64,000 bases of DNA, taken from contig CBDCTH010000012.1 of assembly GCA_965222155.1 (NCBI GenBank), positions 1,248,001-1,312,000 of the forward strand, read 5' to 3'. The notes beneath the pieces were generated by a model. The model was not told the origin of the DNA. It made no database searches and saw nothing but the letters and a program-made list of their open reading frames with translations. How positions within the stretch are numbered: the first letter of the stretch is position 1; every line of letters starts with the position of its first letter. This document shows positions 41,529 to 64,000 of this stretch, piece by piece. Position numbers and translations under genes: made by a program. This stretch comes from Gammaproteobacteria bacterium. GTDB lineage: Bacteria; Pseudomonadota; Gammaproteobacteria; Eutrophobiales; Eutrophobiaceae.

Positions 41529-41677
41529 ATTTGGGAACGCCTAGCTCTCCGCCATAGGCGTTCAAAATATACTGGCATAACAACAGGCCAGTCCCACCAT
41601 TTCCAATATTGTGATATAATGCACAATATACTTCACATAAACGTTAATAATGTCTATAATAGTGTTTGTTATAACTA

Positions 41678-42016: not shown

Positions 42017-42033
42017 CGACAGTAGGAACCAAC

Positions 42034-46111: not shown

Positions 46112-48805
46112 ATGACTTTCGACCACTTACATGCGCTGCCGCCCGGCACGCGCTTTGAGGAATACCGGCTGGATGTGGTGCTGGGCGCCGGGGGCTTCGG
46201 CATCACCTACCGGGCGTACGATGAAAACCTGGACAAGGTCGTGGCCATCAAGGAATACCTGCCTGATTTTGCTACCCGGACGGGGGCCAGCACGGTGGTG
46301 CCCAAATCCAGCACGGACGCTCAGGATTATCATTGGGGTTTGACCCGGTTCCTGGACGAGGCCCGCACCCTGGCGCGGTTCGACCATCCTCACATGAACA
46401 AGGTGCATCGCTTTTTCGAGGCCAACGGCACGGCCTACATGGTGCTGGAGTACATCCACGGCGAGACCCTGGCAAACCGGTTGAGCCGCGAACCGCGCTT
46501 ACCGGAGGAGACTTTGCTGCGGTTGCTGGACGAAGTCTTGTCTGGCCTGGCAGTGATACACGAAGCTAGGTACGTCCACCGTGACATCAAGCCGGGCAAC
46601 CTGATGTTGCGCGAAGAGGACGGGAGTGCGGTGCTGCTGGACTTCGGCGCGGCGCGCCAAGCCGTGGGGCAGCGTTCGCAGCGGTTGACGACGATTTTGA
46701 CACCGGGGTATGCGCCGATTGAGCAGTATGACGGCAAGGTGGACCGCGTCGGCGCGTGGACGGACATCTATGCGTTGGGGATGGTGGCGTACCGGTGTAT
46801 CAGCGGGACCGGTGATGGAGACCTGACGGATGCGGTGGCGCGTAAGCTGGCGCAACACGACGATAACGCGGGACTGGCCTCGGCTGTGGAAGCAGGAAGA
46901 GGCCGGTACAGTCCGAAGTTACTGGCGGCGATTGACTGGGCGATAGAGGTGGATGAGGAGTCTCGGCCGCAGGGGGTGAGTGAGTGGAGCGAGTCACTGG
47001 CCGGGGGGGTGAGCAAGAAACGCACAGCCAGGTCGGCACGCAAGCCCGCGACCCGGTCTGCAAAGCCCCCGACAACGGAGCGCACCGGCATGAGTTGGTC
47101 GAGCATGGCGCTGACGGTAGTGATTGTCGTGCTGCTGGGGGCGAGCGCCTGGCAGGGCTGGCGTTTGTACCAGGGGATGCCCGGGGTTGGCATGGCTGAC
47201 ACCGAAACAACGGCGGAGCCGCAGGCGGGTATTCAGACTGAACCACGAACAGGCACAGAGTCAGATATCCAGCTCGACAGTCCGGCACAGACCGCGCCAG
47301 AAACACCCGACACCAAGTTAGCGTCGGTAGACAGCACAAAGCCGGAAGCGAGCCAGCCGGTTACAGGGCCGAGCGCTTCACCGCCTCCTGAAGAAGATGA
47401 AGTCTCTCGTTTACTGGCGGCAGCCGAGGCCGACATCACGGCGCGGCGCTTGACCAGCCCTGTCGGGAACAATGCCTGGGAGAAGTATCAACGGGTATTG
47501 AGTTTATCCCCTGCCCACCCCGAAGCCATGGCGGGGATGGAGCGGGTGATGGGGAGTTACCTGGAGTTGTTCGGGGCTGCGCTGGAGCAGGAGGATTTTG
47601 ACAAGGCGGGTAGTTACCTGGGACGTATTCGTGAGTTACACCCGGACTCACCGGTGCTGGAGGAAGGTGTGCGCCGTATTGAAACGAGCAAGCAGGAGCA
47701 GGCGGACCGGTTGTCAAGGAGGCAGGCCATTCGGGCACGCCTGGACTCGTTTGAGACGGCGTTACGGCAGGATAAGCTGGACGAGGCGGCGGGTTACCTG
47801 GATCGAATACGCGCCCTGGATGCAAATGCAGCGGGGTTGGCAGAGGGGGAACAGCGTCTTGCCGAGGCCCGGCAGGCGGAGGCGGAGTTGGCGCGGCAAC
47901 GGCAGGCGGAGGCCGGCCGGCATGTAGCGCAGTTTGAGGAAGCGATGCAGGAAGGAGGCCTTGACAAGGCGGCGAGACACATCGCAGGCATTCGTAGATT
48001 ACACCCGGACTGGCCTGAACTGGGGGATGCAGAACAGCGTTTTGCCAAGGCCCGGGAGACAGAGAAGGAACGCCAGCGCAGAGAGGGCGAAGCAAGAGCG
48101 AGGGAACTGGCCGATGAAATGGTCTCGATACCCGCCGGCACGTTCCGCATGGGGGACATGAGTGGCGATGGTCAGAGTGATGAAAAACCGGTCCACCGCG
48201 TAAGGGTGTCGGCCTTCAATCTGGGCAAGTACGAGGTGACGTTTGCCCAATGGGACGCCTGCGTAGCGGACGGGGGTTGTGGCGGTTACCGGCCGGAGGA
48301 TTATGGCAGCGGCCGGGATAATCACCCGGTGATAAACGTCTCCTGGGACTATGTCCAGACGTTCATCTTCTGGTTGAATAAGAAGACCGGCGGTAATTTC
48401 CGCTTGCCGAGCGCGGCGGAGTGGGAGTATGCGGCCCGTGCCGGGAGCAAGACCAAATACTCTTGGGGGAACAGCATCGGCAGCAACCGGGCGAATTGCG
48501 ACGGTTGCGGCAGTCGATGGGATGATGACCGGACTGCGCCGGTGGGGAGTTTCTCTGCCAATGCCTGGGGGTTACATGACATGCACGGCAACGTGTGGGA
48601 GTGGACAGAGGACTGCTGGAACGACAGTTACGCGGGGGCGCCGAGTGACGGCCGCGCCTGGGAACTGGGGAACTGCGGCCGGCGTGTGCGTCGCGGCGGT
48701 TCCTGGAACGACGGGCCGTGGAACCTGCGTTCCGCCAGCCGTGACAGGTTTACCCGCTCGGACCGCCTCAACTTCATCGGCTTCCGCTTGGCCCAGGACA
48801 AGTAG
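46112..48805 (+). CDS. Receptor-like Ser/Thr kinase with TM helix, helical repeats and a C-terminal FGE-sulfatase (CLec-fold) domain; putative DGR target
   Basis: GAGGFG, VAIKE, HRDIKPGN, DFG and GYAPIEQ; TM segment ALTVVIVVLLGASAW; RLPS.AEWEYAARAG, GLHDMHGNVWEW and RGGSW...GFRLA. Confidence 0.93.
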   Translation: MTFDHLHALPPGTRFEEYRLDVVLGAGGFGITYRAYDENLDKVVAIKEYLPDFATRTGASTVVPKSSTDAQDYHWGLTRFLDEARTLARFDHPHMNKVHRFFEANGTAYMVLEYIHGETLANRLSREPRLPEETLLRLLDEVLSGLAVIHEARYVHRDIKPGNLMLREEDGSAVLLDFGAARQAVGQRSQRLTTILTPGYAPIEQYDGKVDRVGAWTDIYALGMVAYRCISGTGDGDLTDAVARKLAQHDDNAGLASAVEAGRGRYSPKLLAAIDWAIEVDEESRPQGVSEWSESLAGGVSKKRTARSARKPATRSAKPPTTERTGMSWSSMALTVVIVVLLGASAWQGWRLYQGMPGVGMADTETTAEPQAGIQTEPRTGTESDIQLDSPAQTAPETPDTKLASVDSTKPEASQPVTGPSASPPPEEDEVSRLLAAAEADITARRLTSPVGNNAWEKYQRVLSLSPAHPEAMAGMERVMGSYLELFGAALEQEDFDKAGSYLGRIRELHPDSPVLEEGVRRIETSKQEQADRLSRRQAIRARLDSFETALRQDKLDEAAGYLDRIRALDANAAGLAEGEQRLAEARQAEAELARQRQAEAGRHVAQFEEAMQEGGLDKAARHIAGIRRLHPDWPELGDAEQRFAKARETEKERQRREGEARARELADEMVSIPAGTFRMGDMSGDGQSDEKPVHRVRVSAFNLGKYEVTFAQWDACVADGGCGGYRPEDYGSGRDNHPVINVSWDYVQTFIFWLNKKTGGNFRLPSAAEWEYAARAGSKTKYSWGNSIGSNRANCDGCGSRWDDDRTAPVGSFSANAWGLHDMHGNVWEWTEDCWNDSYAGAPSDGRAWELGNCGRRVRRGGSWNDGPWNLRSASRDRFTRSDRLNFIGFRLAQDK
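48681..48774 (+). other. Putative DGR variable region VR1
   Basis: 23 differences from the paralog (55367-55460), 22 of them at codon positions 1 or 2, inside otherwise identical sequence. Confidence 0.85.
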
Positions 48806-49741: not shown

Positions 49742-51055
49742 TCACGACGCTGTCCTCGATTTCCCCTGCAACATAGTCTTGGGATATATCGACCAGCGTA
49801 TCCCGGCAGACCACGCGGTTTGCGGACAGGTTCTCACCGGTGCAGTCTGCAGCGCGGGACATGGCGTCCATGGCGGTCTCCACCCCTTTCGGGTCGACCG
49901 TGTCTCAATCGGCGTGGCGCTGGTCATCCACGCGGGCGCGACCGGCGTCGCGGCATCTGCGGCGCTAAGCCGTTCCCCAGGCACGATCCGGAGTTCGCTG
50001 ATACGGTACGCGGAATCAACCGTGCGCTCCCAGTAAGTCAGCAAGGCGACGTCCAGCAGCGGGTTGTAGTAGAGCGCCGCGGGCGTGGGCGTGTCCGCGG
50101 CGCGTGTTTCGATGACGGCATTCTCAAAAAACGGCCCCCAGGTTTGTTTGAGCACGCTGTTGCGCTGCGCTTCCGTCGCATCCGGCGGCACCAGCCAGCT
50201 TACGCCCGGTATCAGTCCCAGTACCCGCATAGACATATCGTCGCGGTCTACGACCGAGCGGCGTAACGCCGCCGCCTGTCCGGGGAACCCCGGCGTCTCG
50301 GCAGGTTCAGCCTGCGGAACGGCCGCAACGGGAGGGGCTTCGGCCGGCGGGCCGGTAGCTGTCTCCGGCTCTGCCGCTACTGCTTGCGTCACTGTAACCG
50401 GCAGGGCAGCCTGTTCCTGCTCTGTCGGTGGCGTTTCCGGCGGCGCCGTGACCAGGTCGTAGGTCTCGATCAGGCCCAGCCGTCCCCGGACCGCGACAAA
50501 CGAACCCGTATGGGGCAGTTTGAACATGGTGACCGGCTGTTTTGCGCCGGACCCCTTGTCAGTCCAGATCAGGGAACTGGTGACGACTTTTTCCGTGAGG
50601 CTCGCCGGCACACAACGGTAATCTGGCAGGGACGGTTTTTCATATCCTGCCTGGGGAACGCTGCCCAGGCAGCGGTATTGATCGCCGGGCGGGACGGCCC
50701 GCCACATCGAACCGTCCTGCCGCGCCCCGCTGCCCTTGTCCTTCCATATCAATTCCCAGTCTACCGGTACGGCCAGTTGCGCCGAGTCCTTTACTGTCAG
50801 CACACAGTCGACACCGGTTAGTTCCTTTAGGCGGGACCCATAGCCGCCGATAATGAAATACGTCGGCTCTGCAACCGGGAGGTAAAAATAGCCGTCCAGG
50901 TCCGCGCCCGAGCCCTTGTCATCCCAGGTCTTTTCCATGGAGCACGCCGGCCTGGTATCAAGCCGGGCGCCTGTTGCCGTGGGATTGTCAACCTGGGCAA
51001 GAACGCCTGCGGAGATGAACCAGGCAAGGAACAGGAAGCAGGTAGGGCGCATCAT
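49742..51055 (-). CDS. Secreted Vps62/DUF946-like repeat protein, probably rearranged or frameshifted at its 3' end
   Basis: Signal peptide; three W.DKGSGA repeats; Pro/Ala-rich linker; coding frame appears to switch near 49890. Confidence 0.6.
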   Translation of the reverse strand: MMRPTCFLFLAWFISAGVLAQVDNPTATGARLDTRPACSMEKTWDDKGSGADLDGYFYLPVAEPTYFIIGGYGSRLKELTGVDCVLTVKDSAQLAVPVDWELIWKDKGSGARQDGSMWRAVPPGDQYRCLGSVPQAGYEKPSLPDYRCVPASLTEKVVTSSLIWTDKGSGAKQPVTMFKLPHTGSFVAVRGRLGLIETYDLVTAPPETPPTEQEQAALPVTVTQAVAAEPETATGPPAEAPPVAAVPQAEPAETPGFPGQAAALRRSVVDRDDMSMRVLGLIPGVSWLVPPDATEAQRNSVLKQTWGPFFENAVIETRAADTPTPAALYYNPLLDVALLTYWERTVDSAYRISELRIVPGERLSAADAATPVAPAWMTSATPIETRSTRKGWRPPWTPCPALQTAPVRTCPQTAWSAGIRWSIYPKTMLQGKSRTAS

Positions 51056-51205: not shown

Positions 51206-52839
51206 CAGCTATTCCCGCTAACGCCTGGGTCGTCACGAAATCCCGATAAATACGGGGTTTTTGAGAAGGCTGAAAAAAGGTTTTCGTAAACGTTTGGCAT
51301 TGCTTCAGTATAGTAGGGAGTATTATTCAAGTCAAAAGTGAGGTGAGAAGCCATGTCTCGACCTTCGTTTCGCAAAACTTTGAGTCTCCCCGGTCTGTTA
51401 GCTGAGGTACGTCGTTGTTTTCAAGCCATCCCGGACGGCAAGGTGGGTCGGGGCTTGACCCTGACGGAGTATCTGCTGTCGGGGTTGGCGGTATTCGGTT
51501 TGAAGTACCCGTCATTATTGCAGTTTGATGCAGGCCGTCAGAACGAGGTGGTGCGTTCGAACCTGCGCACGTTATACGGGATTGTGCGGGTCCCCTCGGA
51601 CACGGCGTTGCGTGAGCGGCTGGATGAGGTGGACCCGTCCCGGTTACGGCGGGCGTTCCGGCGGGTGTTACAGGTGTTGCAGTGTGGCAAGGGTCTGGAG
51701 GACTTTCAGTGGTGGGCCGGTCATTACCTGTTATCGGTGGACGGGACGGGCTATTTTTATTCGGACCAGGTGCATTGCGAGCAGTGCTGTGAGACACACC
51801 ACCGGGACGGTCGGGTGAGTTATTATCATCAGTTGTTGGGGGCGGTACTGGTACATCCTGACCAACGTGCGGTGTTGCCGTTAGCACCGGAGCCCCTCTT
51901 ACGTGCGGACGGGGTGGCTAAGAATGACTGTGAGCGCACTGCGGCGTAGCGCTTGCTGACGGACGTGCGGCGCGAGCATCCCCACCTGAAACTGGTTGTA
52001 GTGGAAGATGCGTTGGCGGCCAACGGGCCGCATATCAAGTTATTACAGTCGTTGAAGCTACGTTATATCCTGGGGGTGAAGCCCGGCGACCATGCGTTTC
52101 TGTTTGATTGGGTGGCTACCACGCCGGGGGTGCAGAGCGCGGCGTTGACCGGGGAAGACGGCACCGTGCACCGGTTTCGTTACCTTAACGGTGCGCCGTT
52201 GAACGAGAGTCACTTTGACCTTCAGGTGAACTTCCTGGCGTATGAAGAGCAGCGTCCCTCAGGCAAGGTACGGCATTTTACCTGGGTGACGGATATACCG
52301 TTACACGAGGCCAACCTGCTGCGGGTGATGCGCGGGGCGCGGGCGCGTTGGAAGATTGAGAATGAGACATTCAATACCCTGAAGCACCAAGGCTATCACT
52401 TTGAGCATAACCTCAAGCATGGCTATCAGCACCTGTCCACGGTGCTGGCGTACCTGATGATGCTGGCGTTTCTGGTAGACCAAGTGCAGCAGCACTGCTG
52501 CGGACTGTTTCAACAGGCGTCGGCGAAGGAGAAATATAAACGCTACTTCTGGGAGACGCTGCGCAGCTTCTTCTTCACCTGGCTGCTGCCGGACTGGGAG
52601 ACGTTGTATCGGGCGCTGGCCTATGGCGCTGCCCCGCGCGTGCTGACCCCCTATGATACCTCTTAAGGGTGAGCCGTGACCGGGTAGCTCAAGGCGAGGG
52701 ACTTCAGGGGATACCAAGCTGAATACAGAACACCGGGGACAGCCGGAGGGCCGCCCATCCCCTGCTGGTCGGGTCATTGTGAAAAAAATGAATCTGGCCC
52801 GATAATGCTGCCGATCGCAGGAGTTAGCGGGAACACCTG
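51206..52839 (+). mobile_element. Insertion sequence (DDE transposase, IS4-like/ISNCY type)
   Basis: TIRs CAGCTATTCCCGCTAACGCCTG / CAGGAGTTAGCGGGAACACCTG; flanks GAAGGAAAG / GAAGGAAAT. Confidence 0.85.
51353..52666 (+). pseudogene. DDE transposase with one internal stop
   Basis: SVDGTG, KNDCE, VEDAL and RARWKIENETFNTLK; TAG at 51947 splits two in-frame ORFs. Confidence 0.88.
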
Positions 52840-52926: not shown

Positions 52927-55491
52927 ATGACCATCGATCACATCCATGCCCTGCCGCCCGGCACCCGCTTTGAGGAATACCGGCTGGATGTGGTGCTGGG
53001 GGCCGGAGGCTTCGGGATTACCTACCGGGCGTACGATGCCCACCTGGACGTGCATGTCGCTATCAAGGAGTACCTGCCCGGGGAGTTTGCAACGCGGTCG
53101 GAGGGCAGCACAGTGGTACCCAAATCCAGCACGGACGTCCAGGATTATCAATGGGGCTTGAGCCGCTTCCTGGACGAGGCCCGTACCCTGGCGCGCTTTG
53201 ACCATCCGCACCTGAACAAGGTGCGCCGCTTTTTCGAGGCCAACGGTACGGCCTACATGGTGCTGGAGTACATTCACGGCGAGACCCTGGCTGCCCGACT
53301 GGGCCGCGATGCGCGCTTGCCGGAAGCGGCGTTGCTGCGCCTGCTGGAAGAAATCCTGTCGGGCCTGGCGGTGATACACAAGGCGGGCTACGTGCACCGG
53401 GACATCAAGCCGGGCAACCTGATGTTGCGGGAAGAGGACGGGAGCGCGGTGCTGCTGGACTTCGGCGCCGCCCGCCAGGCGGTGGGCCAGCGATCCAAGT
53501 CGATCACAAGCATCCTGACCCCGGGCTATGCCCCGATAGAGCAGTATGACAGCAAGGCGGACGACGTGGGGCCGTGGAGCGATATCTATGCGTTGGGCAT
53601 GGTGGCCTACAAGTGTATCAGCGGGACGGGTGACGGGGCGTTGCCGGATGCGGTGACGCGAGGCCGGGCACAGCGCAAGGGCGGGGTGGACCTGGCCTCG
53701 GCGGCGGTAGCGGGCAAGGGCCGGTACAGTCCGAAGTTATTGGAAGCGATAGACTGGGCGATTGAGGTGGATGAGGAGGCCCGTCCGCAAGGGGTAGCTG
53801 AGTGGTTGGAAGCATTGGCGGGGGGTAGTAGCAAGCATCGTAAAACCGGCACCGGGCACAAGCCCGCGACCCGGCCTGCAAAGGCCCCGGCGACCGAGCG
53901 CACCGGCATGAGTTGGTCGAGCATGGCGCTGACGGCGGTGATTGTCGTGCTGCTGGGGGCGAGCGCCTGGCAGGGCTGGCGGCTATACCGGGGTATGCCG
54001 GTGGTTACCCCGGATGAAACGACCACCATGGCGGAGTCACAGGATGAATCACAGACAGACAGGGAATCAGACCCACAAACAACAGGGACACCGGTGGACA
54101 CAGGGTCGGACAGTCCGGCGGAGACTGCACCAGTTATGTCCGAAACTGAGCCAGTAGCGTCGGCGGACAGCGCAGCAGCGCAGCAACCGGCGGCGGACCC
54201 GGCCAAGGATGCGCCTGCTGAAGAAGACGAGGTAACCCGGTTGCTGGCGGGGGCTGATGCGGACATCACGGCGTGGCGCTTGACCAGCCCTGTCGGAAAC
54301 AACGCCTGGGAGAAGTATCAACGGGTACTGAGTTTATCGCCGACGCACCCGGCGGCCATGGCGGGGATGGAGCGGGTTATAGGGAGTTATATGGCGTTAT
54401 TCGGGGCGGCGCTGGAGCAGGAGGACTTTGACCAGGCTGACAGTTACCTTGAGCGTATCCGCGCCCTGCACCCGGACTCCCCTGCTCTGTTGACGGGGAA
54501 AAAGCAGTTGGAAGTGGCCAAACAGGCGCGTGCCGAGCGTCTGGCTGAGCAGGAGAGGCAACGTCAGGCGGAGGAAGCGGCGCGCCAGGCGGAACTGGAG
54601 CAGCAACGCATTGCCCGTGCCATTGAGGGACATTGGGAAGCGTTTGAGACTGCAATGCAGCGGGATGGGTGGGATGAGGCGGCGGGTAACCTCAATCAGG
54701 TACGCGACCTGAATCCCGATGAGCCGGGTCTGGCAACAGGGGAGCGGCGTCTGGCAGCGGCGCGGGAGGCCGCCCGGCAGAAGGCGCTGCAATATGTCGG
54801 TGAAATGGTCTCGATACCCGCCGGCACGTTCCGCATGGGGGACATGAGTGGCGATGGTCAGAGTGATGAAAAACCGGTCCACCGCGTAAGGGTGTCGGCC
54901 TTCAATCTGGGCAAGTACGAGGTGACGTTTGCCCAATGGGACGCCTGCGTAGCGGACGGGGGTTGTGGCGGTTACCGGCCGGAGGATTATGGCAGCGGCC
55001 GGGATAATCACCCGGTGATAAACGTCTCCTGGGACTATGTCCAGACGTTCATCTTCTGGTTGAATAAGAAGACCGGCGGTAATTTCCGCTTGCCGAGCGC
55101 GGCGGAGTGGGAGTATGCGGCCCGTGCCGGGAGCAAGACCAAATACTCTTGGGGGAACAGCATCGGCAGCAACCGGGCGAATTGCGACGGTTGCGGCAGT
55201 CGATGGGATGATGACCGGACTGCGCCGGTGGGGAGTTTCTCTGCCAATGCCTGGGGGTTACATGACATGCACGGCAACGTGTGGGAGTGGACAGAGGACT
55301 GCTGGAACGACAGTTACGCGGGGGCGCCGAGTGACGGCCGCGCCTGGGAACTGGGGAACTGCGGCCAGCGTGTGATTCGCGGCGGTTCCTTGTTCCACGG
55401 ACCGGGGGGCCTGCGTTCCGCCTCCCGTGGCTGGAATACCCGCTCGTACCGCGGCTCCTACATCGGCTTCCGCTTGGCCCAGGACAAGTAG
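52927..55491 (+). CDS. Receptor-like Ser/Thr kinase with a C-terminal FGE-sulfatase (CLec-fold) domain, paralog 2; putative DGR target
   Basis: Same architecture and intact catalytic motifs as the 46112 gene. Confidence 0.93.
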   Translation: MTIDHIHALPPGTRFEEYRLDVVLGAGGFGITYRAYDAHLDVHVAIKEYLPGEFATRSEGSTVVPKSSTDVQDYQWGLSRFLDEARTLARFDHPHLNKVRRFFEANGTAYMVLEYIHGETLAARLGRDARLPEAALLRLLEEILSGLAVIHKAGYVHRDIKPGNLMLREEDGSAVLLDFGAARQAVGQRSKSITSILTPGYAPIEQYDSKADDVGPWSDIYALGMVAYKCISGTGDGALPDAVTRGRAQRKGGVDLASAAVAGKGRYSPKLLEAIDWAIEVDEEARPQGVAEWLEALAGGSSKHRKTGTGHKPATRPAKAPATERTGMSWSSMALTAVIVVLLGASAWQGWRLYRGMPVVTPDETTTMAESQDESQTDRESDPQTTGTPVDTGSDSPAETAPVMSETEPVASADSAAAQQPAADPAKDAPAEEDEVTRLLAGADADITAWRLTSPVGNNAWEKYQRVLSLSPTHPAAMAGMERVIGSYMALFGAALEQEDFDQADSYLERIRALHPDSPALLTGKKQLEVAKQARAERLAEQERQRQAEEAARQAELEQQRIARAIEGHWEAFETAMQRDGWDEAAGNLNQVRDLNPDEPGLATGERRLAAAREAARQKALQYVGEMVSIPAGTFRMGDMSGDGQSDEKPVHRVRVSAFNLGKYEVTFAQWDACVADGGCGGYRPEDYGSGRDNHPVINVSWDYVQTFIFWLNKKTGGNFRLPSAAEWEYAARAGSKTKYSWGNSIGSNRANCDGCGSRWDDDRTAPVGSFSANAWGLHDMHGNVWEWTEDCWNDSYAGAPSDGRAWELGNCGQRVIRGGSLFHGPGGLRSASRGWNTRSYRGSYIGFRLAQDK
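55367..55460 (+). other. Putative DGR variable region VR2
   Basis: Aligned with VR1; encodes QRVIRGGSLFHGPGGLRSASRGWNTRSYRGSY. Confidence 0.85.
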
Positions 55492-55570: not shown

Positions 55571-55591
55571 GCCCGGCGCACAGCGCCGGGC
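55571..55591. other. GC-rich hairpin downstream of VR2
   Basis: GCCCGGCGC-ACA-GCGCCGGGC. Confidence 0.7.
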
Positions 55592-55794
55592 TGCGATTTT
55601 TTCAGGAGTTACCCATACAAATTCCTGCACCGACCTGAAATTCCCTCATATTTTCCAATTCACGTAACTTAACTAGAAAAAGTCCACCACAACCGCGACT
55701 CATTTCTAAAACCGTATTTCTAAAACCGTATTACTTATAGACAAACCCCCCATACTTGATTAGCATAAGTCACAAGGAGGGGCTACCGTAAACG

Positions 55795-56256
55795 TTGATC
55801 CCGTTACAAAGCGTCAGTCTGACATTCTCATGCGAACGCCAACCGTCCATGTCCAGGATTCGTTGTTATATCGTCGGGCGTGACCCCTCCGCATCCATCG
55901 TCCTGCAGCATGAGACGGTGTCGCGCAGGCATGCAGAACTGATTCCCGTGTCCGGCGGGCAGGTATACGTGACGGACTGCGCCAGCACCTGCGGGACTTT
56001 TATCGATAAAGGCGGCCGTTGGGAGAAAGTCAGCCAGGATTTCGTCAGCGCCGGAGGCAGGGTACGCTTCGGCGACGTAGAGGTTAGCGTGCAGAGTTTG
56101 CTGGCCGATATTGCCCGCCTGCCTGCCGGCGATGGAGCGGCTCCCGGCGGTTCGGCAGATCCCGGGGGTTCCCCAGGTGTTGATAAGAAGAAACAGGTGG
56201 ATGCCAGCCACGGGGTCGTGCGCGACCCCGACACGGGGGAGCCGATCGCCATGTGA
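55795..56256 (+). CDS. FHA-domain protein (start probably 55849)
   Basis: VGR, VSRRHAEL and D..S..GTF. Confidence 0.88.
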   Translation: MIPLQSVSLTFSCERQPSMSRIRCYIVGRDPSASIVLQHETVSRRHAELIPVSGGQVYVTDCASTCGTFIDKGGRWEKVSQDFVSAGGRVRFGDVEVSVQSLLADIARLPAGDGAAPGGSADPGGSPGVDKKKQVDASHGVVRDPDTGEPIAM

Positions 56257-56271
56257 TCGGATTGACAGACC

Positions 56272-57075
56272 ATGAACCAGAGAATGACGATATTCACAGG
56301 CGCACTGGGCGCAGGCGTAGTCTTCATCGGCGTGCTCAGCCTGTTCCTGTCTGAAGGCTTTTTCGCCGATTTCCTGCTGGACAGGAATTCAAAGTTCATG
56401 CCGTATCCGGTCACCATACAGAATATCATGTGGCTGGTATTCTTCATCGGGGCAGGAGAACTGTTGTTGCGCTACCTGCAAACAGACCGGGAAATAAGTC
56501 AGATCCGCCTGGGACTCCTGCCGGAGGACAGCACGACCTTGTTGCGCAAGCAGGACCTTGGCGGCGTATATCAGCGCGTCAAGGAGACCATGTATCCGGC
56601 ACCGGGCGAGGTAGGCACGTTCGGGCGCAGCAAGGGTGCGGCTGATGATTCCTATTTCCTGCAACGCCTGTTGTCCCGTTGTATCCTCCAGTTCCAGGTC
56701 AGCGGAGCCATCGACAAGGCGAACAACATGTTCAACTCCAGCCTGGAACTGTTCCAGCACGAGGTCGAACTGAGATACAACGCCATACGCTATATCGTCT
56801 GGCTGATCCCAACCCTGGGTTTTATCGGCACCGTCGTCGGCATCGCGCTGGCGCTCAGTGACGCAGGCAGCGTCGAGAACTACCAGGACCCCACTCTGCT
56901 TAAACAGCTCACGCAGAGTCTCGGCGTCGCCTTTTTTACCACCCTGCTGGCACTGTTGCAGTCCGCTGTGCTGATGTTCGCGCTGCATGTCGTCCAGGGT
57001 CAGGAGGAAGCATCGCTGAACAGGATTGGACAGTATTGCCTGGATAACCTGATTAACCGGTTGTATGAGACCTGA
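56272..57075 (+). CDS. MotA/TolQ/ExbB proton-channel family protein
   Basis: IPTLGFIGTVVGI and LGVAFFTTLLAL transmembrane motifs. Confidence 0.9.
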   Translation: MNQRMTIFTGALGAGVVFIGVLSLFLSEGFFADFLLDRNSKFMPYPVTIQNIMWLVFFIGAGELLLRYLQTDREISQIRLGLLPEDSTTLLRKQDLGGVYQRVKETMYPAPGEVGTFGRSKGAADDSYFLQRLLSRCILQFQVSGAIDKANNMFNSSLELFQHEVELRYNAIRYIVWLIPTLGFIGTVVGIALALSDAGSVENYQDPTLLKQLTQSLGVAFFTTLLALLQSAVLMFALHVVQGQEEASLNRIGQYCLDNLINRLYET

Positions 57076-57181
57076 TGCGCGGCGCTTGTGAATTCCGCCG
57101 ACCGGACGGGCCTGTAATTTGAATACGCCGTGTTTGTCTGTTAAATTTTAATGCACTGAAAACTGCGAAGGGGAGAAAATC

Positions 57182-57844
57182 ATGCCGGTAAAACGCGACG
57201 CGGACGGGAATATCATCGAGGAAAAGACAAGAATCGCCGGGGGGTTCGATCAGGTTTCACCGACGTTAGCGGGGCAATCACCCGTTGGCGCCACGGTCGG
57301 TCCCGGCAAAAACCCCCAGTCCGATCCTGGCCGGCAATCGGGTTATGAGGCCCAGACGGTCCTGGCAGGCTCAACCCGCGCCGCCGGTGGGGAAGCCAAG
57401 ACCAGGATATACCGGCCCGGCAGGACGGAGCGGGGGCAGCCGGGGACGACGTTGTCAAGTACGGATACTGAGGATTCGCCGTCCGCTGCCATGGACGACC
57501 CGCCGGTAGGGTGGCTGGTTGTCATCAAGGGGCCGGGACAGGGGAATTTCATGGCCGTCGGCAACGGTTCGAATTCGGTCGGACGCGATGAGGGCGAGCG
57601 CGTCCGTGTAGATTTTGGCGACGAGATGATCTCCCGTAGCGGCCATTCGGCGATTACCTACGACCCCAGGGGCAAGAAGTTTTACCTGCAACACGGCGCT
57701 GGAAAAAATCTGACTTACCTGGAGGGCAATCCGGTCCTGTCGCCGACGGAACTGTCCAGATTCTCCCGGATCACCATAGGGAACACCGAATTACTGTTCG
57801 TCCCGCTCTGCTGCGAACAGTTCGACTGGGATGAATATACGTAA
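57182..57844 (+). CDS. FHA-domain protein with a Thr-containing disordered N-terminus
   Basis: VGWLVVIKGPGQG, VGR, D..ISR..H..I.YDP and NLTYL. Confidence 0.88.
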   Translation: MPVKRDADGNIIEEKTRIAGGFDQVSPTLAGQSPVGATVGPGKNPQSDPGRQSGYEAQTVLAGSTRAAGGEAKTRIYRPGRTERGQPGTTLSSTDTEDSPSAAMDDPPVGWLVVIKGPGQGNFMAVGNGSNSVGRDEGERVRVDFGDEMISRSGHSAITYDPRGKKFYLQHGAGKNLTYLEGNPVLSPTELSRFSRITIGNTELLFVPLCCEQFDWDEYT

Positions 57845-57853
57845 CAGGTCATT

Positions 57854-58837
57854 ATGAATGCCGTCAAGCAGTGGGTGGCAGGGGAGCAAATCCAGGGGGA
57901 CCGAAATTACCAGGAAGACGATTTCTCGATTCGCCTTCTGTTTCAAGACCGGGACTCTCTGGATGAGGACCAGCTGCTGCTCGTGCTGGCCGACGGCATG
58001 GGCGGCCATGCCGGCGGCGCCGTTGCCAGCAAGACGGTAGTCCAGGCTTTCCAGGAGGGCTTCTACCGGAATGCGTCCGGCATCGCAGAACGCTTCAATG
58101 CCGGCATTGAAACCGCCAACAACGCCGTTAAGGAAAAGCAACTAGCCGACCTGAACCTGTCCGAAATGGGCTGCACCCTGGTCGCCGCATTGGTTGTCGG
58201 GTCGAGTCTTTACTGGACCAGTGTCGGCGACTCCATACTGTGGCTGTTCAGGCAGAACCGCCTGCAGCGGCTGAATGCGGATCATTCCATGAAGCCCCTG
58301 CTACTGGACCTGGTTGAGTTGGGTAGGATGACCGAAGAAGAGGCCTTGAGCGATTCCAGGATCAACCAGTTGCGCTCGGCCATCTTTGGCGAGGAGGTCC
58401 CGTTAATCGACATGAACGCGGACGGTTTCCAGTTGGAAGCCGGCGATCTGATTTTGCTGGCCACTGATGGCCTTGAAACCCTGTCGGAGGAAGGAATGGC
58501 GGATGTCATCAAGGCAGGCGCAAACGATGCCGATGAGATAGTGAACGCCCTGCTTGACGCCGTCGCCATGGCGGGCGTGCGCGGACAGGACAACACCACG
58601 GCGCTGGTGTACCGGGTTGGTGAGGGGAATGATTCACTGCACGGCGCGCTGGCTGGTATAAGCGCAACTGGCCAGGGAGCCGGTTTCGAGCAACAGATTA
58701 AACCCTCCCGGACATGCGAGATTCGTCCTGAACAGGATGGAGAAGCTCCGGAAAAGCGACCGGGGATTTTCGCCAGAATTATGCACGCCTTTTCGGGTAA
58801 GCCTGCGCAGGAAAACACACGGGGAAAAACGCAATGA
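57854..58837 (+). CDS. PP2C-family Ser/Thr phosphatase
   Basis: R.YQED, ADGMGGH, MGCT, VGDS, DHS, ATDGL and QDNTT. Confidence 0.95.
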   Translation: MNAVKQWVAGEQIQGDRNYQEDDFSIRLLFQDRDSLDEDQLLLVLADGMGGHAGGAVASKTVVQAFQEGFYRNASGIAERFNAGIETANNAVKEKQLADLNLSEMGCTLVAALVVGSSLYWTSVGDSILWLFRQNRLQRLNADHSMKPLLLDLVELGRMTEEEALSDSRINQLRSAIFGEEVPLIDMNADGFQLEAGDLILLATDGLETLSEEGMADVIKAGANDADEIVNALLDAVAMAGVRGQDNTTALVYRVGEGNDSLHGALAGISATGQGAGFEQQIKPSRTCEIRPEQDGEAPEKRPGIFARIMHAFSGKPAQENTRGKTQ

Positions 58838-60921
58838 TAGCAATGCGACCAATATTATGGTGCGCGATCCTGCTGTATCTGCCGGTCGGTATCAGCCAGA
58901 CACCAGACGCCGGGTCTGAGTCTCCGGCGGAGACGCAGAATGCCCCAGCGACCGCGGAAGGGACAGGGGAAACAGCCGGCGCTGTCACCGGTACCACGAG
59001 TACCACCGTTACTCCACCCGCTGATGTCACCACACCTCCTCCTGGAGACACACCTGATCCGGCCACGGCGCCTGCTGCCACCCCGGAAACCTCTGCTGAT
59101 GCAACACCGGCCGCTCCACAAGCAGGTGCTGCTGCGCTCGCAACTGCACCCCCTGACCCGGCGGAAGAAATTGCGGCACCCGCAGATGCGCCTGCCACTC
59201 CAGCTGACGCCTCACCTGCGCCTGCCGCAGCAGTCACAGACGCCGTTGTCGAGTCGCCAGAGACTGCCGAGGTGACCACGGACACCGCTGCCGAAGCGTC
59301 CGCGGCACCAGGGAGCCCTGCGCAGGCCCCCGCCTCCTCACCGGATACGGCCGCGGCAACTGTCGCTGCACCTGCAACGCAGGTTCCCGCAACCGTCGAT
59401 TTCAGCGCAGTTCGACCCTACCTGGTCGTCGTGAAAGACGGGATGGATGCCGCCGCCCGCCAGACGCCGGGATTCAGCATCAGCGATCAGGGACATATCC
59501 TGACATACTCGGGCGAATTACGCGCCCGGGATTCTTATCTTGTCTCGATTGCCGACGGCCAGATCTTTACTGCGGCGCTGCTTGATAAAGATAAAGAAAC
59601 CGGTCTCATGCTGGTCAGGATTGCCGAAGGCGGTCACGGCCTCGGCGCCTTGAAGTTTGCGAGAACAGCGCTTGAAGCCGCGGCGCCGCTGTATGCAGTC
59701 AAATTCGACCCGGCGCAGGCAGAGCCGTTCATGCCTGTTGCCGGCACGGTCTCACGGCTGCCCGACATTGATGAGGATATCCCGTCGATCGTGCATAACG
59801 CCTTGTTCAATACGGCGGCGGCCGGGACGCCGTTGTTTAACCGGTGTTACCAGATGGTGGGGGTCAACGTGCTGCAAAAAGAGGGGTTTTCGTCGAAAAC
59901 CATCGATCCCGAGAAACAGGGCAGCGCGAGTTCCCTTGCGGCCTACCCGTTGAGTGTGTTCCTGGCTGCGGCAAACCTCACCCTGCCCATTAGTGAGGCT
60001 GAGTGCCTGAGTGTGGAAGAGGAAGCGCGGCTGCGACTGGAACTGGCCCAGCGGGAAAAAGAGGCTGCCCTGCAGGCAGAGCGGGAAAGCGCCGAAGCCC
60101 GGGCCAGGGTCGTTACGGAGGAAGCGCAACGCAGAGAAGCGGAATTGAGCAGGGAGAGGGAGGCGGCGCAGCAGCAGGTCGAGCAGGCGCACCGGGAGAG
60201 AGAGGCAGCCCTGCAAGCGGAGCGGCAGCAGGTCGAGGCCGAGAAACGCCGGCTCGAAGAAGAAGCGCAACAACGCCTTGAACAGGCGCAGCAGGAAAAA
60301 GAACAGGCCCTGCAGGCGCAACAGCAGGAGAAAGAGCAAGCCCTGCAGGCAGAGAGGCAGGAGACCGAACAGGCCAGGCAGGAAGCCAGGCAGGCAACGC
60401 ACATGGGGAAACAAATCCTGCAATTTTCCCTGATGGTCGGCCTCGCCCTGCTGCTTGTCTTCTTTCTTGTCATACGCGCCAGGCGTAAACGTTTGCAAGG
60501 CGTAGAGCAGGAAAAACAGCAGATTGCCCATGCCCTGGACAAGGCCCAGGCCGATTTGTCCGACGCCTCCGAACGGGAACAGTTGCGCGCCGTCGCCCCC
60601 GATGTCTTTATCGAGGGTATCACGCCGCAAAATGAGCTGATTGCCCTGAAAATCCCTGGCGCCTCACTGGTAGAACCCTCGGGTGCCACGGTAGGCAGGA
60701 GCCCTGTCGAATCGGCGTTCGTCATCAATCACGAACAGGTTTCACGCCGCCATTTCCGCCTCTTGCTGGTTTCCGGGCAAGTCATGATCGAAGACCTGGG
60801 TTCCACGAACGGGACCGTTGTAAACGGCGTGCCCCTCAATCCCGGCGCCCGGCAAGCACTGGGCAACGGCAGCCGCCTTGGTACCGGCCACCTGGCGTTT
60901 ACGGTGCGTTTAGGTCCTTGA
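58834..60921 (+). CDS. Membrane protein: signal peptide, Pro/Ala/Thr linker, degenerate trypsin-like domain, coiled coil, TM helix, FHA
   Basis: GF.ISDQGHILT and GTPLFNRC..MVGVN trypsin-like frame; TM segment FSLMVGLALLLVFFLVI; VGR, VSRRH and DLGSTNGT. Confidence 0.8.
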   Translation: MIAMRPILWCAILLYLPVGISQTPDAGSESPAETQNAPATAEGTGETAGAVTGTTSTTVTPPADVTTPPPGDTPDPATAPAATPETSADATPAAPQAGAAALATAPPDPAEEIAAPADAPATPADASPAPAAAVTDAVVESPETAEVTTDTAAEASAAPGSPAQAPASSPDTAAATVAAPATQVPATVDFSAVRPYLVVVKDGMDAAARQTPGFSISDQGHILTYSGELRARDSYLVSIADGQIFTAALLDKDKETGLMLVRIAEGGHGLGALKFARTALEAAAPLYAVKFDPAQAEPFMPVAGTVSRLPDIDEDIPSIVHNALFNTAAAGTPLFNRCYQMVGVNVLQKEGFSSKTIDPEKQGSASSLAAYPLSVFLAAANLTLPISEAECLSVEEEARLRLELAQREKEAALQAERESAEARARVVTEEAQRREAELSREREAAQQQVEQAHREREAALQAERQQVEAEKRRLEEEAQQRLEQAQQEKEQALQAQQQEKEQALQAERQETEQARQEARQATHMGKQILQFSLMVGLALLLVFFLVIRARRKRLQGVEQEKQQIAHALDKAQADLSDASEREQLRAVAPDVFIEGITPQNELIALKIPGASLVEPSGATVGRSPVESAFVINHEQVSRRHFRLLLVSGQVMIEDLGSTNGTVVNGVPLNPGARQALGNGSRLGTGHLAFTVRLGP

Positions 60922-62160
60922 ATGAACCGTCCCTTGTTACACTGGGTGATAATTCTAGGCCTCTGCGGCCTAAACAACGGAGCCCGCGCCGATTTTGTTG
61001 GCCGATCAGGGAGCGCAATGCCGCACTTCATTGACGGGTGGGCTCATATAGCGGCAACCCCGGGCCGGAACTTGCCAGGGGTTGACTGGATGGATTATAT
61101 CCCGGCCATCGTTGATATATTGCCCGATGTAGTCGATCTTTTCGATCGACCTCCCAAGGACAAGGAAGAACAGTATAGAGAGGAGCAGGAAGCGCAACAG
61201 GAACAGGATGCGGCGCAACAGGAACAGGATGCGGCGCAACGGGAACGCCAGCGGGCACAGCAGGCCGAGCAGGAAGCGCAACGGCAGCGGGAAGCGGCGC
61301 AACGGGAACGCCAGCGGGCACAGCGGGCTGAGCAGGAAGCGCAACGGCAGCGGGAAGCGGTGCATCAGTCGAGGGAAATGGCGGAAGAAGCCAGGGGCGC
61401 GGCAGAGGAAGCGAAAGGAACTGCCCGGGAGGCGAAAGGAATCGCACAAGATGCAAAAGGCGTGGCCCAGGAAGCCAGAGGTGCGGCGCAAGAGGCTAAG
61501 GGAATTTCGCAGGAGGCGAAAGGTGAGGCGCAGGCGGCAAAGGGTACGGCGGAAGAAGCCAGGGGCGTGGCGCACGAGGCGAAAGGCACGGCGGAGCAGG
61601 CACGAGGCACTGCGGTTGAAGCCCAGAGACAGGTTGAGGTAGCGCACGTACGCGTGGGCCAGCAAAACACGTTTGTGGCTCTGCTGGCCCTGTTGACCCT
61701 GCTGGCCCTGATCCTGGCCCTGAGAAAGCCCAGGCAGGCCATCGTCCGGGCTGCCGGGCACGCGATGGAACCATTGAGTCGGCGCTTCAAGCCAGCAGCA
61801 CACAAGCTGGCTCCCGGCGCAGGTCACGCCGGAACTGCAAACGTTGTACTCACGGGATTTAACAACAAAGGCAGGCCGGTCAATGTTCCGCTGCCGGAGT
61901 CGGAACTGGACCCGAAACTGGGCGGTTTCACCCTGGGACGCCATCACCTGCTGGTTGATAAGGTGCTGGACGATGATCGGGTATCGAAGCGACATGCCAG
62001 GTTCTCCCATAACGGGTGCGGTTATTTTGTCGAAGATCTCAATTCAAGGAACGGTACCGTCATTAACGGCACCCAGCCGTGCGCGCCCTTCAAACCGATA
62101 CAAATCAGATCCGGCGATACGGTGCGACTCGGTGGCATGGAGTTGATCGTGTCCGCCTGA
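60922..62160 (+). CDS. Membrane protein: signal peptide, repetitive coiled coil, TM helix, FHA
   Basis: A.EAKG heptad repeats; TM segment FVALLALLTLLALILAL; LGR, VSKRHA and DLNSRNGT. Confidence 0.82.
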   Translation: MNRPLLHWVIILGLCGLNNGARADFVGRSGSAMPHFIDGWAHIAATPGRNLPGVDWMDYIPAIVDILPDVVDLFDRPPKDKEEQYREEQEAQQEQDAAQQEQDAAQRERQRAQQAEQEAQRQREAAQRERQRAQRAEQEAQRQREAVHQSREMAEEARGAAEEAKGTAREAKGIAQDAKGVAQEARGAAQEAKGISQEAKGEAQAAKGTAEEARGVAHEAKGTAEQARGTAVEAQRQVEVAHVRVGQQNTFVALLALLTLLALILALRKPRQAIVRAAGHAMEPLSRRFKPAAHKLAPGAGHAGTANVVLTGFNNKGRPVNVPLPESELDPKLGGFTLGRHHLLVDKVLDDDRVSKRHARFSHNGCGYFVEDLNSRNGTVINGTQPCAPFKPIQIRSGDTVRLGGMELIVSA

Positions 62161-62173
62161 TGCAGGAGAACCT

Positions 62174-62998
62174 GTGAGGTTACGCAGTAAGGAGATCAAT
62201 GTCTTCAACATGTCCGCGCTGGACCTGTTTGCCTCCGCGCTGGGCGCTTTTATCCTGATCTCCGTTGTCCTGTTTCCCTATTTCCCCAATACGGGCGATT
62301 CACAGGAGCGCGTGGATGATGTCAAGGCGCAGTTGGAACAGGCCAATGCCGAGCTGGAGGAAACCAGCGCGGAACTGGAACAGACCAGCACCGAACTGGA
62401 AGAAGTCCGTGCGCAATTGAACCCCAACCTTCAACAGGAACTGCAGGCCGTGCGGGGACAACTCGGTTCCTGTGAGACCGAGCGCCGGGAAGCACAGGCC
62501 GCCCTCAATTCCTGCCAGACAGAGCAGCGACAGGCCGCATCGATGAATTCAGCTCTCGGCGCCTGCGAGAGCCGCAACCAGCAGATGCAGCAGGAACTTC
62601 AATCGTGTGAAACACAACTGCGCAAGAAATTCGTACTGGTCGTGATCAGCTGGGGTACGCCGGATGACATTGATCTGCACGTGACCGACCCGGCCGGGCG
62701 GGAGTTCTTTTTCGGGCGCAAATACCACTCCGGTTCCCTGGCGAAACTGGAAGAGGACAACACCCGCGGCCCCGGCAACGAAATCTGGCTACACCCGGCC
62801 GCGGAGCCCGGCAGGTACCAGGTGCACTATAAATATTTTAGGGGATCGGGCGACAGTGTATCGGTACGTGGCGCGGTGCTGACGCCGCGCGGCAGGACGG
62901 AGTTACCGGGAACGACCTTGAGGTACGTCGACGACAAGCCCCTGGTTGCTACCGTTATAGTCGATGATGAGGGCTACGCCGAAGTAATAGCGAGGTAG
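62174..62998 (+). CDS. ExbD/MotB-like membrane anchor, coiled coil and YfaP/DUF2135-like domain
   Basis: N-terminal MSALDLFASALGAFILI with an Asp in the TM helix; ISW...DIDLHVTDP.G and D.T.GPG.E. Confidence 0.7.
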   Translation: MRLRSKEINVFNMSALDLFASALGAFILISVVLFPYFPNTGDSQERVDDVKAQLEQANAELEETSAELEQTSTELEEVRAQLNPNLQQELQAVRGQLGSCETERREAQAALNSCQTEQRQAASMNSALGACESRNQQMQQELQSCETQLRKKFVLVVISWGTPDDIDLHVTDPAGREFFFGRKYHSGSLAKLEEDNTRGPGNEIWLHPAAEPGRYQVHYKYFRGSGDSVSVRGAVLTPRGRTELPGTTLRYVDDKPLVATVIVDDEGYAEVIAR

Positions 62999-63023
62999 TG
63001 ATAGTGCCGGGAATTCTTCCGCA

Positions 63024-63053
63024 TTGACACGGCTTCGCTGGCCGTCTTACAAT
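63024..63053 (+). promoter_or_regulatory. Sigma70 promoter of kinase 3
   Basis: TTGACA-N18-TACAAT. Confidence 0.75.
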
Positions 63054-63093
63054 CCATAACCACCCGAGCGCCATAACCGGAGACTGACATCCC

Positions 63094-64000
63094 ATGACCA
63101 TCGACCACCTGCATGCCTTGCCCCTTGGCACGCATCTTGAGGAATTCAGACTGGATGCGCAGTTGGGCGCCGGGGGGTTCGGGATTACCTACCGGGCGCA
63201 TGATGAACTCCTGGACAAGGTGGTGGCCATCAAGGAATACCTCCCGAGGGATTTTGCCACCCGCACTGCCGGCAACACGGTGGCGCCCATATCCGATGCA
63301 GATGCAAGGGACTATCAATGGGGCTTGACCCGGTTTCTGGACGAGGCCCGCACCCTGGCCCGTTTTAAGCACCCGCACCTGAATCAGGTCTATCGTTTCT
63401 TTGAGTCCAACGGCACGGCCTACATGGTGCTGGAGTACGTTCACGGTGAGACGCTGGCAGACCGGTTGAGCAGGGAGCCATTTTTAGAAGAAGCGGACTT
63501 ACAACGTGTGCTTGATGAAGTTTTGTCAGGTCTGGGAGTCATGCACGAGGCCGGTTACGTCCACCGGGACATCAAGCCGGGCAATCTGATGTTGCGCGAG
63601 GAGGACGGGAGTGCTGTGGTGCTGGATTTCGGTGCCGCCCGTCAGGCGGTGGGGCAGCGTTCCAAGCCTATTACCAGCATCTTAACCCCGGGGTATGCCC
63701 CGGTGGAGCAGTATGACGGCAAGGTAGACCGCGTCGGCGCCTGGACGGACATTTATGCATTAGGGATGGTGGCGTACCGCTGTATCAGTGGGCTGGGGGA
63801 TAGTGAGTTACCCGATGCAGTGGCGCGGATGCTGGCGCACACCAGGAGAGAAGCAGTATTACTCCCTGCCATAGAGGCAGGTAAGGGCAGATACAGTCCC
63901 AAGCTGTTGGAAGCGATAGATTGGGCGATGGAAGTGAACGAACATGACCGGCCGCAGAGTGTGGACGCATGGCGTCAAGCCCTGACCGGGGGCACTCGCA
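63094..64000 (+). CDS. Ser/Thr kinase paralog 3, partial (runs off the window; absent from the ORF track)
   Basis: MTIDHLHALPLGTHLEEFRLDAQLGAGGFGITY...VAIKEY...HRDIKPGN...DFG; no stop codon seen by eye. Confidence 0.92.
   Translation, partial: MTIDHLHALPLGTHLEEFRLDAQLGAGGFGITYRAHDELLDKVVAIKEYLPRDFATRTAGNTVAPISDADARDYQWGLTRFLDEARTLARFKHPHLNQVYRFFESNGTAYMVLEYVHGETLADRLSREPFLEEADLQRVLDEVLSGLGVMHEAGYVHRDIKPGNLMLREEDGSAVVLDFGAARQAVGQRSKPITSILTPGYAPVEQYDGKVDRVGAWTDIYALGMVAYRCISGLGDSELPDAVARMLAHTRREAVLLPAIEAGKGRYSPKLLEAIDWAMEVNEHDRPQSVDAWRQALTGGTR

Follow-up and report, generated by a model that had tools for sequence, protein, structure and literature searches.

The question raised by a 64,000-nucleotide stretch of DNA from a gammaproteobacterium (contig CBDCTH010000012.1, C12 in the coordinates below, positions 1,248,001 to 1,312,000; hereafter the window) is what a row of seven genes close to its end does in the company of three receptor kinases. 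An earlier note on this DNA had seen there a co-oriented operon with a MotA/ExbB-type channel, FHA proteins and a PP2C phosphatase, and had proposed that binding at a hypervariable kinase domain triggers phosphorylation, which assembles an FHA-linked complex across the envelope. Taken as a whole, that interpretation is partly supported. We read the locus as a mobile, periplasm-facing module of recognition and response, in which the output of the receptor kinases would be a protease/pseudoprotease pair together with a 5:2 ion motor, and we give this reading a probability of about 0.55. It starts from direct observations, namely the anatomy of the locus, the intact catalytic and pore residues, the targeting of the kinases by a diversity-generating retroelement (DGR) and the co-inheritance of the genes. 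The module is real and matched no named system among those compared; its parts are each known, and their combination was not met in the open-access literature searched.

Seven open reading frames (ORFs) lie on the + strand between 55849 and 62998, where the earlier note had placed its operon: FHA1, a MotA-like protein, FHA2, PP2C, a pseudo-trypsin-TM-FHA protein (TM, transmembrane helix), a coiled-coil-TM-FHA protein and an Asp-helix partner, with spacings of 15, 106, 9, -4, 0 and 13 bp, respectively (Table 1). Pfam assigned FHA, MotA_ExbB (E 1.4e-10), FHA (E 5.7e-6), PP2C_2, Trypsin_2 plus FHA, and FHA to the first six, and no meaningful family to the seventh. Purifying selection acts on each of the seven (dN/dS 0.03-0.27 versus two congeners). 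Moreover, the Pfam FHA matches of the genome, three in all, fall at this locus, the same search finding no further FHA gene elsewhere in the genome, and three of the four Hanks kinases above the cut-off are also here, the fourth being a truncated paralogue.

The distribution of these genes was followed by a scan of GTDB, which retrieved 281 relatives; the best 80 were taken with flanks of up to 10 kb, and their parts were called with profiles built from the 80 loci themselves. This set is biased to close matches, and some of its genomes overlap the set of congeners or occur twice. The genes do co-occur elsewhere: 41 of these best 80 loci hold the complete seven-part core. Taken singly, FHA2 was found in 55 loci, PP2C in 51, a kinase in 55, a trypsin-TM-FHA protein in 44 and an Asp-helix partner in 70, and the full-flank loci with FHA2 or PP2C had kinase, FHA and FHA2 in 42 cases out of 42. 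According to the record titles, the loci span Gammaproteobacteria, Alphaproteobacteria, Ca. Binatia, Latescibacterota, Gemmatimonadota and Acidobacteriota. They differ in how the genes are arranged, but MotA with FHA2 next to follow is nearly fixed. Since the same gene set recurs across phyla, the operon is not a chance arrangement. Its seven genes very probably work as one unit.

The spread of the operon is patchy, with 9 carriers among 22 congeners and 6 among 300 genomes of the class. A variant resides on plasmid pRlBT01d of Rhizobium leguminosarum BT01 (in the order PP2C, FHA2, kinase-PDZ, PP2C, FHA1, MotA, TerD-type partner, TM-FHA, kinase-PDZ-PAN), and another copy occurs in a cultured isolate (L059); the viral contigs searched contained no MotA relative. 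Across 48 loci, the MotA, FHA2, PP2C and kinase trees correlate with one another (rho 0.71-0.85), an agreement inflated by kinship. In all four trees the loci nearest to this operon, after those of two congeners, are from Ca. Binatia, and the version found in six congeners is more distant (58-60%). Since the Ca. Binatia loci are nearer than the version of these six congeners, the trees point to a horizontal movement of the operon as a block, to which no donor is assigned. A decaying copy was seen in genome G014 (L131:7952-10736), with a fragmented kinase, a truncated FHA2, a PP2C of intact length and no MotA.

The putative output of the module is encoded by the second and seventh genes. The MotA-like protein has 267 residues, and its structure model (pLDDT 87) gave MotA, ExbB and TolQ as top fold matches at E 1e-3 to 1e-2, Foldseek returning no match at E<=0.001; a MotA profile run against the PDB sequences found PomA and TolQ only (E 0.45-0.8). 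Four threonines (T181, T187, T223 and T224) are invariant in 33/33 aligned homologues. The product of the seventh gene had been described as an ExbD/MotB-like anchor, and this description held for its helix but not for its periplasmic domain. The former bears an aspartate (D17) invariant in 17/17 homologues within a predicted TM (residues 16-34), whereas the latter is modelled as a stalk of about 105 residues with an all-beta head, a TerD-like sandwich (Foldseek E 2e-4; Z 10.5, rmsd 3.1, 120 aligned residues) rather than an ExbD- or OmpA-like domain. No ExbD family match was found within the operon with Pfam or NCBIfam, and a "YfaP-like" label for the head was dropped, as no Pfam family matched it and the fold search gave TerD. 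Among the 80 loci, 52 partner heads are of the vWA type and 17 of the TerD type; this operon has one partner gene, two being seen only in L052 and L054. By analogy, a pentamer of the MotA-like protein and a dimer of the Asp helix would constitute a 5:2 ion motor, presumably an active one.

The motor pair belongs beside the TolQ-like/transpore-helix (TPH) family predicted in PMC12204202 (Williams-Jones et al. 2025; this and the following papers are cited for the passages available to us), in which TolQ-like pentamers are joined to TPH-bearing vWA partners as predicted motors, the vWA-coupled ones being suggested to exert outer-membrane force and perhaps to serve in gliding. Both sets have a TolQ-like gene without tolR or exbD beside it, a partner with an Asp-bearing helix and a ring of threonines. 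They differ in that the published partners are mostly heterologous pairs with vWA heads, whereas here a single partner carries a TerD-like head and the motor is accompanied by four FHA proteins and a protease pair as well as by a kinase and PP2C. The words "kinase", "phosphatase" and "trypsin" are absent from the main text of PMC12204202, as are "FHA" and "TerD" from the supplement searched. A paralogous locus of the same genome (L003:3964-16096, C12 ~3.309-3.321 Mb) encodes lipoprotein-like, TPR-like, PEGA-FGE, TolQ-like and unknown proteins and two Asp-helix proteins of the vWA type; its pentamer subunit is homologous to the operon MotA (hhalign 99.4%). This kind of paired-vWA locus is present in most congeners, and a similar layout occurs in L137 and L138.

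The other operon genes encode the FHA proteins and the phosphatase, whose motifs (ADGMGG/TDGL/DN) are intact. Of three threonines in the N-terminal half of FHA2 (T16, T59 and T74), two are invariant and the third nearly so, and on the grounds of conservation they are candidate phospho-acceptors. A hairpin-like motif is common to this N-terminus and the C-terminus of FHA1; it resembles HU arms, in too generic a way to be of use. In both long FHA proteins a predicted TM directly precedes the C-terminal FHA domain; by the predicted topology, kinases and FHA domains would be cytoplasmic, and the lectin, trypsin-fold and coiled-coil parts periplasmic. The term "pseudo-trypsin" proved apt, catalytic His and Ser being both absent from the fifth gene product. 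Across the loci, 39 trypsin-TM-FHA proteins are of the active class and 32 of the inactive one; of the 44 loci with such proteins, 27 have one of each, 12 the active form only and 5 the inactive form only. The operon under study retains the inactive protein, and its second long FHA protein (gene 6), which occupies the position of the active one in relatives, has no protease domain, as is also the case in genomes G003 and G008. In L140 (4067-5476) a vWA-TM-FHA protein stands beside a trypsin-TM-FHA protein, which shows the periplasmic part of the TM-FHA proteins to be swappable too. In three public runs, gene 6 has a 21-bp length polymorphism within its repeat-rich coiled coil, at ~61192 (L126:13592).

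As to the receptors, the kinase motifs (VAIKE/HRD/DFG) are intact, and in K1 and K2 a single predicted TM separates the kinase from the FGE domain, a fold also found in TagR. Comparison of the variable regions (VRs) of the three kinases with the template repeat (TR) behind K3 gave 16 mismatches at A and 1 at T for VR1, 19 at A and 1 at G for VR2, and 18 at A for VR3, the last with one inserted base that frameshifts K3 in this assembly. Altogether, 53/55 substitutions fall on template adenines, which make up 30/119 TR positions. Judging from this pattern, a complete DGR adjoining the window rewrites the lectin tips of K1, K2 and K3, and the kinases called hypervariable in the earlier note are indeed so, with an ancestry pattern in common with the operon. 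In the three public runs, all contig depth over the insertion spot of VR3 lacks one base; the frameshift is therefore either an error of the assembly or a rare allele. All six substitutions listed within VR3 are on TR adenines, but contigs of paralogues may also map there. A remote VR-like copy (C12:443888-444006; 21 mismatches at A and 6 elsewhere versus TR) is a possible old or remote DGR target.

DGR-diversified kinases with C-type lectin (CLec) domains have been described (PMC7517822; PMC11661182), as have DGR antigen sensors (PMC10907252). The targets in PMC7517822 and PMC10907252 resemble the present ones in the kinase-CLec fusion, the C-terminal VR and the use of one TR for several targets; unlike these, they are mostly predicted to be cytosolic or linked to STAND or MoxR, and the passages available describe no downstream motor pathway. 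Neither text contains the term "FHA".

A Pfam scan of the C-termini of 50 of the 64 listed locus kinases, short kinase-FGE proteins being omitted by design, revealed ankyrin repeats in 16, Sel1 in 9, FGE in 5, peptidoglycan-binding (PG-binding) domains in 4 and PDZ in 2, together with single cases of PEGA, TonB_C, TerB-DnaJ, RDD and zinc finger, and no Pfam match in 12; by this census, the ectodomains swap freely between loci. The earlier note had asked after recurrence with kinase-FGE genes and DGRs: the former recur, in 19/80 loci, but the DGR does not belong to the core. The Latescibacterota locus L080 has its own Avd, reverse transcriptase (RT) and TR beside the operon, with a kinase-FGE target (16/19 mismatches at A), and its DGR linkage appears to have arisen independently. 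Avd relics persist in L049 and in genome G009 (L034, L035, L129). G009 has two of these relics but no close RT, and six of its kinase-(PG-binding)-FGE genes, some of them with a second FGE domain, stand in tandem, an array that looks like a frozen product of a DGR. Congener G015, which lacks the operon, has a DGR with several FGE targets, one of them with ankyrin repeats (L128).

These elements can be joined into a pathway. Single-pass receptor Ser/Thr kinases would expose to the periplasm a binding domain that can be exchanged, in this case the lectin-fold tip that the DGR rewrites, to which a ligand presumably binds. The ligand would dimerise the kinase, leading to phosphorylation of FHA2 at the conserved threonines of its flexible half, as suggested by PpkA/Fha1 and EsrE/EsrG. 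The phosphorylated scaffold may then gather FHA1, both TM-FHA proteins (normally a protease/pseudoprotease pair) and the motor at the site of sensing, where the 5:2 motor, with its stalked head of a metal-binding type (TerD-like or vWA), would exert force in the periplasm or open an ion flux, PP2C eventually resetting the pathway. The most likely trigger is foreign material that enters or damages the periplasm, be it of phage, competitor or epibiont origin or a protein of the host. An arms race with changing ligands is what the multiplied receptors, the swapped domains, the hypermutation, the patchy spread and the decay, as in the G014 relic, point to.

Two described pathways come close to this scheme. 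In the threonine phosphorylation pathway of type VI secretion systems (T6SS), PpkA/PppA/Fha1/TagQRST (PMC13713981), an FHA reader assembles an envelope machine; an inner-membrane Hanks kinase activated from the periplasm, a PP2C eraser and an FHA reader are common to both, whereas the operon is without T6SS, its sensor is fused to the kinase and variable, and its output would be a 5:2 motor. In the epibiont-sensing Esr pathway of Actinomycetales (PMC13622651, preprint), the switch is one phosphothreonine within an FHA protein's disordered region, and a diverse sensing domain and a kinase/phosphatase pair are again shared. Esr differs in its MoxR-vWA, transglutaminase and beta-propeller sensors and in driving Esx secretion in monoderms, and its description, in the passages available, includes no motor or DGR; conversely, MoxR-vWA, a beta-propeller sensor and an Esx link were not found in the operon or among its conserved neighbours. 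The union of motor, kinase/FHA/PP2C and DGR was not found in the open-access text searched, which covered PMC and, for bioRxiv, the main texts.

Several observations weigh against our reading. The DGR is an optional add-on: a close DGR RT occurs in 3/41 genomes, one without the operon and one with the operon ~1.8 Mb away, and in only 1/9 operon-carrying congeners, far from the operon there. The active protease is lost from the present copy, and part of the agreement between trees is owed to kinship. Nor are the parts inseparable, as the motor occurs without FHA and PP2C in 23 loci, 22 from Gemmatimonadota and L100. In favour of our reading, the kinase is absent or degenerate in these 22; five of them examined gene by gene have an upstream receptor (TM-PG-binding-coiled-coil-LRR) and no kinase, a degenerate kinase being seen in L114, and FHA2 was found in 1/21 genomes searched behind loci of this type, at a second locus with kinase, MotA, FHA2, PP2C and a convergent vWA partner. 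In the Gemmatimonadota loci the partner genes lie on the minus strand; the idea that they are antisense artefacts was rejected when cleaned profiles revealed real convergent partners of the vWA type. The kinase clade, in turn, is wider than the motor (12/22 congeners, 8/18 more distant genomes), in genome G025 kinase-FHA-FHA2-PP2C stands with this MotA missing, and kinase-ankyrin arrays with no operon are seen in G017 (a fragmented genome) and G036. Finally, the flanks of the loci hold no further gene that is conserved across clades, be it an effector, a nuclease or an outer-membrane partner, and these flanks are not enriched as defence islands: when 150/199 flank proteins and 150/193 proteins from arbitrary control windows were submitted to PADLOC, 11/150 of the former (3 of them RTs) and 7/150 of the latter were matched. 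Separately, L100 (Ca. Spongiihabitans; L100:10001-12746) has MotA, a TerD-type partner and a TM-coiled-coil protein, with no kinase, FHA or PP2C within its flank.

The neighbourhood thus lends no support to a defence role, one of the possibilities raised in the earlier note. A more specific version of our reading, in which eukaryote-like or DGR-hypermutated periplasmic receptors detect intruders and phosphorylation switches on the motor and the protease/pseudoprotease pair as an immune pathway, is held as tentative. If correct, it would give the DGR-diversified kinases a named output and many ankyrin, Sel1 and LRR proteins of host-associated marine bacteria a job, and would provide, to our knowledge, the first phosphorylation-gated motor of the MotAB/ExbBD type. 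In either form, DGR-diversified kinase-lectin proteins with no known pathway are joined to TolQ-like/TPH motors with no known job in a unit that crosses phyla; if our reading is true, bacterial conflict biology gains a recognition system based on periplasmic receptor kinases, and 5:2 motors gain a new control mode. Experimental handles are offered by FHA2 T16/T59/T74, motor D17 and kinase-dead alleles, and by the cultured carrier R. leguminosarum BT01 (pRlBT01d) and the cultured isolate LSUCC0112. Among antiphage systems, the kinase-kinase-phosphatase module KKP (PMC11341870) is also small and mobile and holds kinases, a PP2C and an FHA domain; according to the parts available, it requires kinase-CSD and kinase-FHA fusions in prophages, whereas the kinases at this locus carry FGE only. 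Further kinase/FHA/PP2C pathways responding to threats are described in PMC11217815 and PMC7159879.

The absence of defence-island enrichment would also suit a module for contact with a host or a surface, whose receptors read cues from host or neighbour and whose motor drives adhesion, surface remodelling or gliding-like movement. Some of the lineages in the record titles are, we assume, sponge-associated, and the ankyrin, Sel1, LRR and lectin ectodomains are eukaryote-like domains of the sort reportedly discussed for sponge symbionts. The outer-membrane force proposed in PMC12204202 would fit as well. On the other hand, ectodomains tethered behind one inner-membrane helix, several of them PG-binding, should not reach the surface; no outer-membrane or Glt-type partner is conserved, the genome has no other FHA gene, and the carriers include the cultured isolate and the Rhizobium plasmid, which makes this explanation rather unlikely.

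Envelope homeostasis of the PknB/PstP/FhaA-FhaB kind, i.e., sensing of peptidoglycan or misfolded proteins with quality control by the protease pair and the motor, would account for the PG-binding and PDZ ectodomains, a weak DegS-like match of the trypsin fold and the fact that the FHA proteins come nearest to FhaB among NCBIfam families, although far below the cut-off. We regard it as improbable, as the module occurs patchily, has moved horizontally and decays in some genomes such as G014, and up to six tandem receptor paralogues with DGR hypervariation fit an arms race better than they fit housekeeping.

ZorA of Zorya has a long cytoplasmic tail, ZorB an OmpA-like PG-binding domain, and the effectors are ZorC/D/E. 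The operon shares with ZorA5B2 a MotAB-type pair, here with a predicted 5:2 make-up, and PADLOC gave weak matches to ZorA2 (E 7e-6, 86/505 model positions) and ZorB1 (E 9e-5), both to membrane-proximal parts only, ZorAB ranking 44 in the MotA fold search. Its 267-residue MotA lacks the tail, its partner ends in a TerD-like instead of an OmpA-like domain, and PADLOC matched no ZorC/D/E in it; the operon is not Zorya. A Zorya-like antiphage system, with the motor pair as sensor or depolarising channel and the kinases as regulators or toxic output, could draw on the AbiEii and HipA genes 12-16 kb upstream and the OLD/UvrD genes beside the Rhizobium copy, but given that no nuclease or helicase effector is conserved and defence neighbours are not enriched, we consider it very doubtful. 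The PADLOC kinase matches PD-T4-6 and mad6 were rejected as generic kinase-domain matches. That the operon is a regulatory accessory of a T6SS encoded elsewhere, as its PpkA/Fha1/PppA writer-reader-eraser logic and weak TagH matches far below the cut-off might suggest, is largely refuted, VipB being found in 0/25 genomes of the family and 1/41 complete-core carriers and Hcp not being found in this 100%-complete genome, in line with the earlier note, which had seen no T6SS genes.

Table 1. Features of the operon, the receptor kinases and the adjoining DGR (window positions unless preceded by C12).
Feature	Position	Strand	Description
K1	46112-48805	+	Hanks kinase, single TM (326-344), helical stalk, FGE/C-type lectin; VR1 48678-48796
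K2	52927-55491	+	kinase, TM (327-345), stalk, FGE/CLec; VR2 55364-55482
9-bp GC hairpin and T-run after VR2	55571-55591	+	near-identical copies after VR1 and VR3
Sigma-70-like site 5' of FHA1	55738-55766	+	9/12 matches; site count not above shuffles
FHA1	55849-56256	+	N-terminal FHA; conserved C-terminal hairpin-like motif, consensus GPVRRNPxTGEII
MotA/TolQ/ExbB-fold pentamer subunit (predicted)	56272-57075	+	invariant pore threonines T181, T187, T223, T224
FHA2	57182-57844	+	poorly conserved N-terminal half with T16, T59, T74; C-terminal FHA
PP2C phosphatase	57854-58837	+	metal-binding motifs intact, no TM
Pseudo-trypsin-TM-FHA	58834-60921	+	signal-like N-terminus, inactive trypsin fold, coiled coil, TM (528-546), cytoplasmic FHA
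Coiled-coil-TM-FHA	60922-62160	+	coiled coil, TM (249-267), FHA; trypsin domain absent
Motor small subunit (predicted)	62174-62998	+	Asp17 transpore helix (16-34), ~105-residue helical stalk, TerD-like beta-sandwich
Sigma-70-like site 5' of K3	63024-63053	+	11/12 matches
K3	from 63094 past the window end to ~C12:1313038	+	kinase, TM, FGE/CLec; VR3 C12:1312910-1313029
Avd	C12:1313168-1313521		beyond the window, directly behind K3; NCBIfam NF033474 92.5 bits, cut-off 80
DGR reverse transcriptase	C12:1313525-1314607		beyond the window, behind Avd
Template repeat (TR)	C12:1314596-1314714		beyond the window; 119 bp, 30 adenines

The FHA1 ORF as called extends from 55795 to 56256; the ATG at 55849 is the more likely start, since the closest homologue starts there. 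K2 and K3 are probably transcribed apart from the operon, as suggested by the hairpin and T-run after K2 and, weakly, by the sigma-70-like sites before FHA1 and K3 (four such sites were found versus 4.1 expected by chance from shuffles). From its sequence, the hairpin with its T-run might serve as a DGR cis-element, a terminator or both.

Some neighbouring genes complete the picture. Upstream of K1 (40076-43365) lie an AbiEii-type toxin-antitoxin pair (DUF6088 and AbiEii) and a pair formed by an HTH protein and HipA. Beside the Rhizobium module stands an OLD-family ATPase/TOPRIM and UvrD pair (L139:201-2865), which we take to be Gabija-like, and a 1610-residue protein with no Pfam match (L139:14108-18940) lies inside the module; the genes at L004:8480-15003 seem to us to resemble a type I-U/I-G CRISPR-Cas set. 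Between K1 and K2, the minus strand encodes a secreted-looking protein with a eukaryote-like Vps62 domain (49742-51055), and by eye a relative of its C-terminal part seems to lie near a kinase-ankyrin gene in L135. Two ORFs at 51353-52666, also between K1 and K2, are presumably a split DDE transposase, with no transposase match in Pfam, and the higher read depth over them suggests that they are present in more copies.

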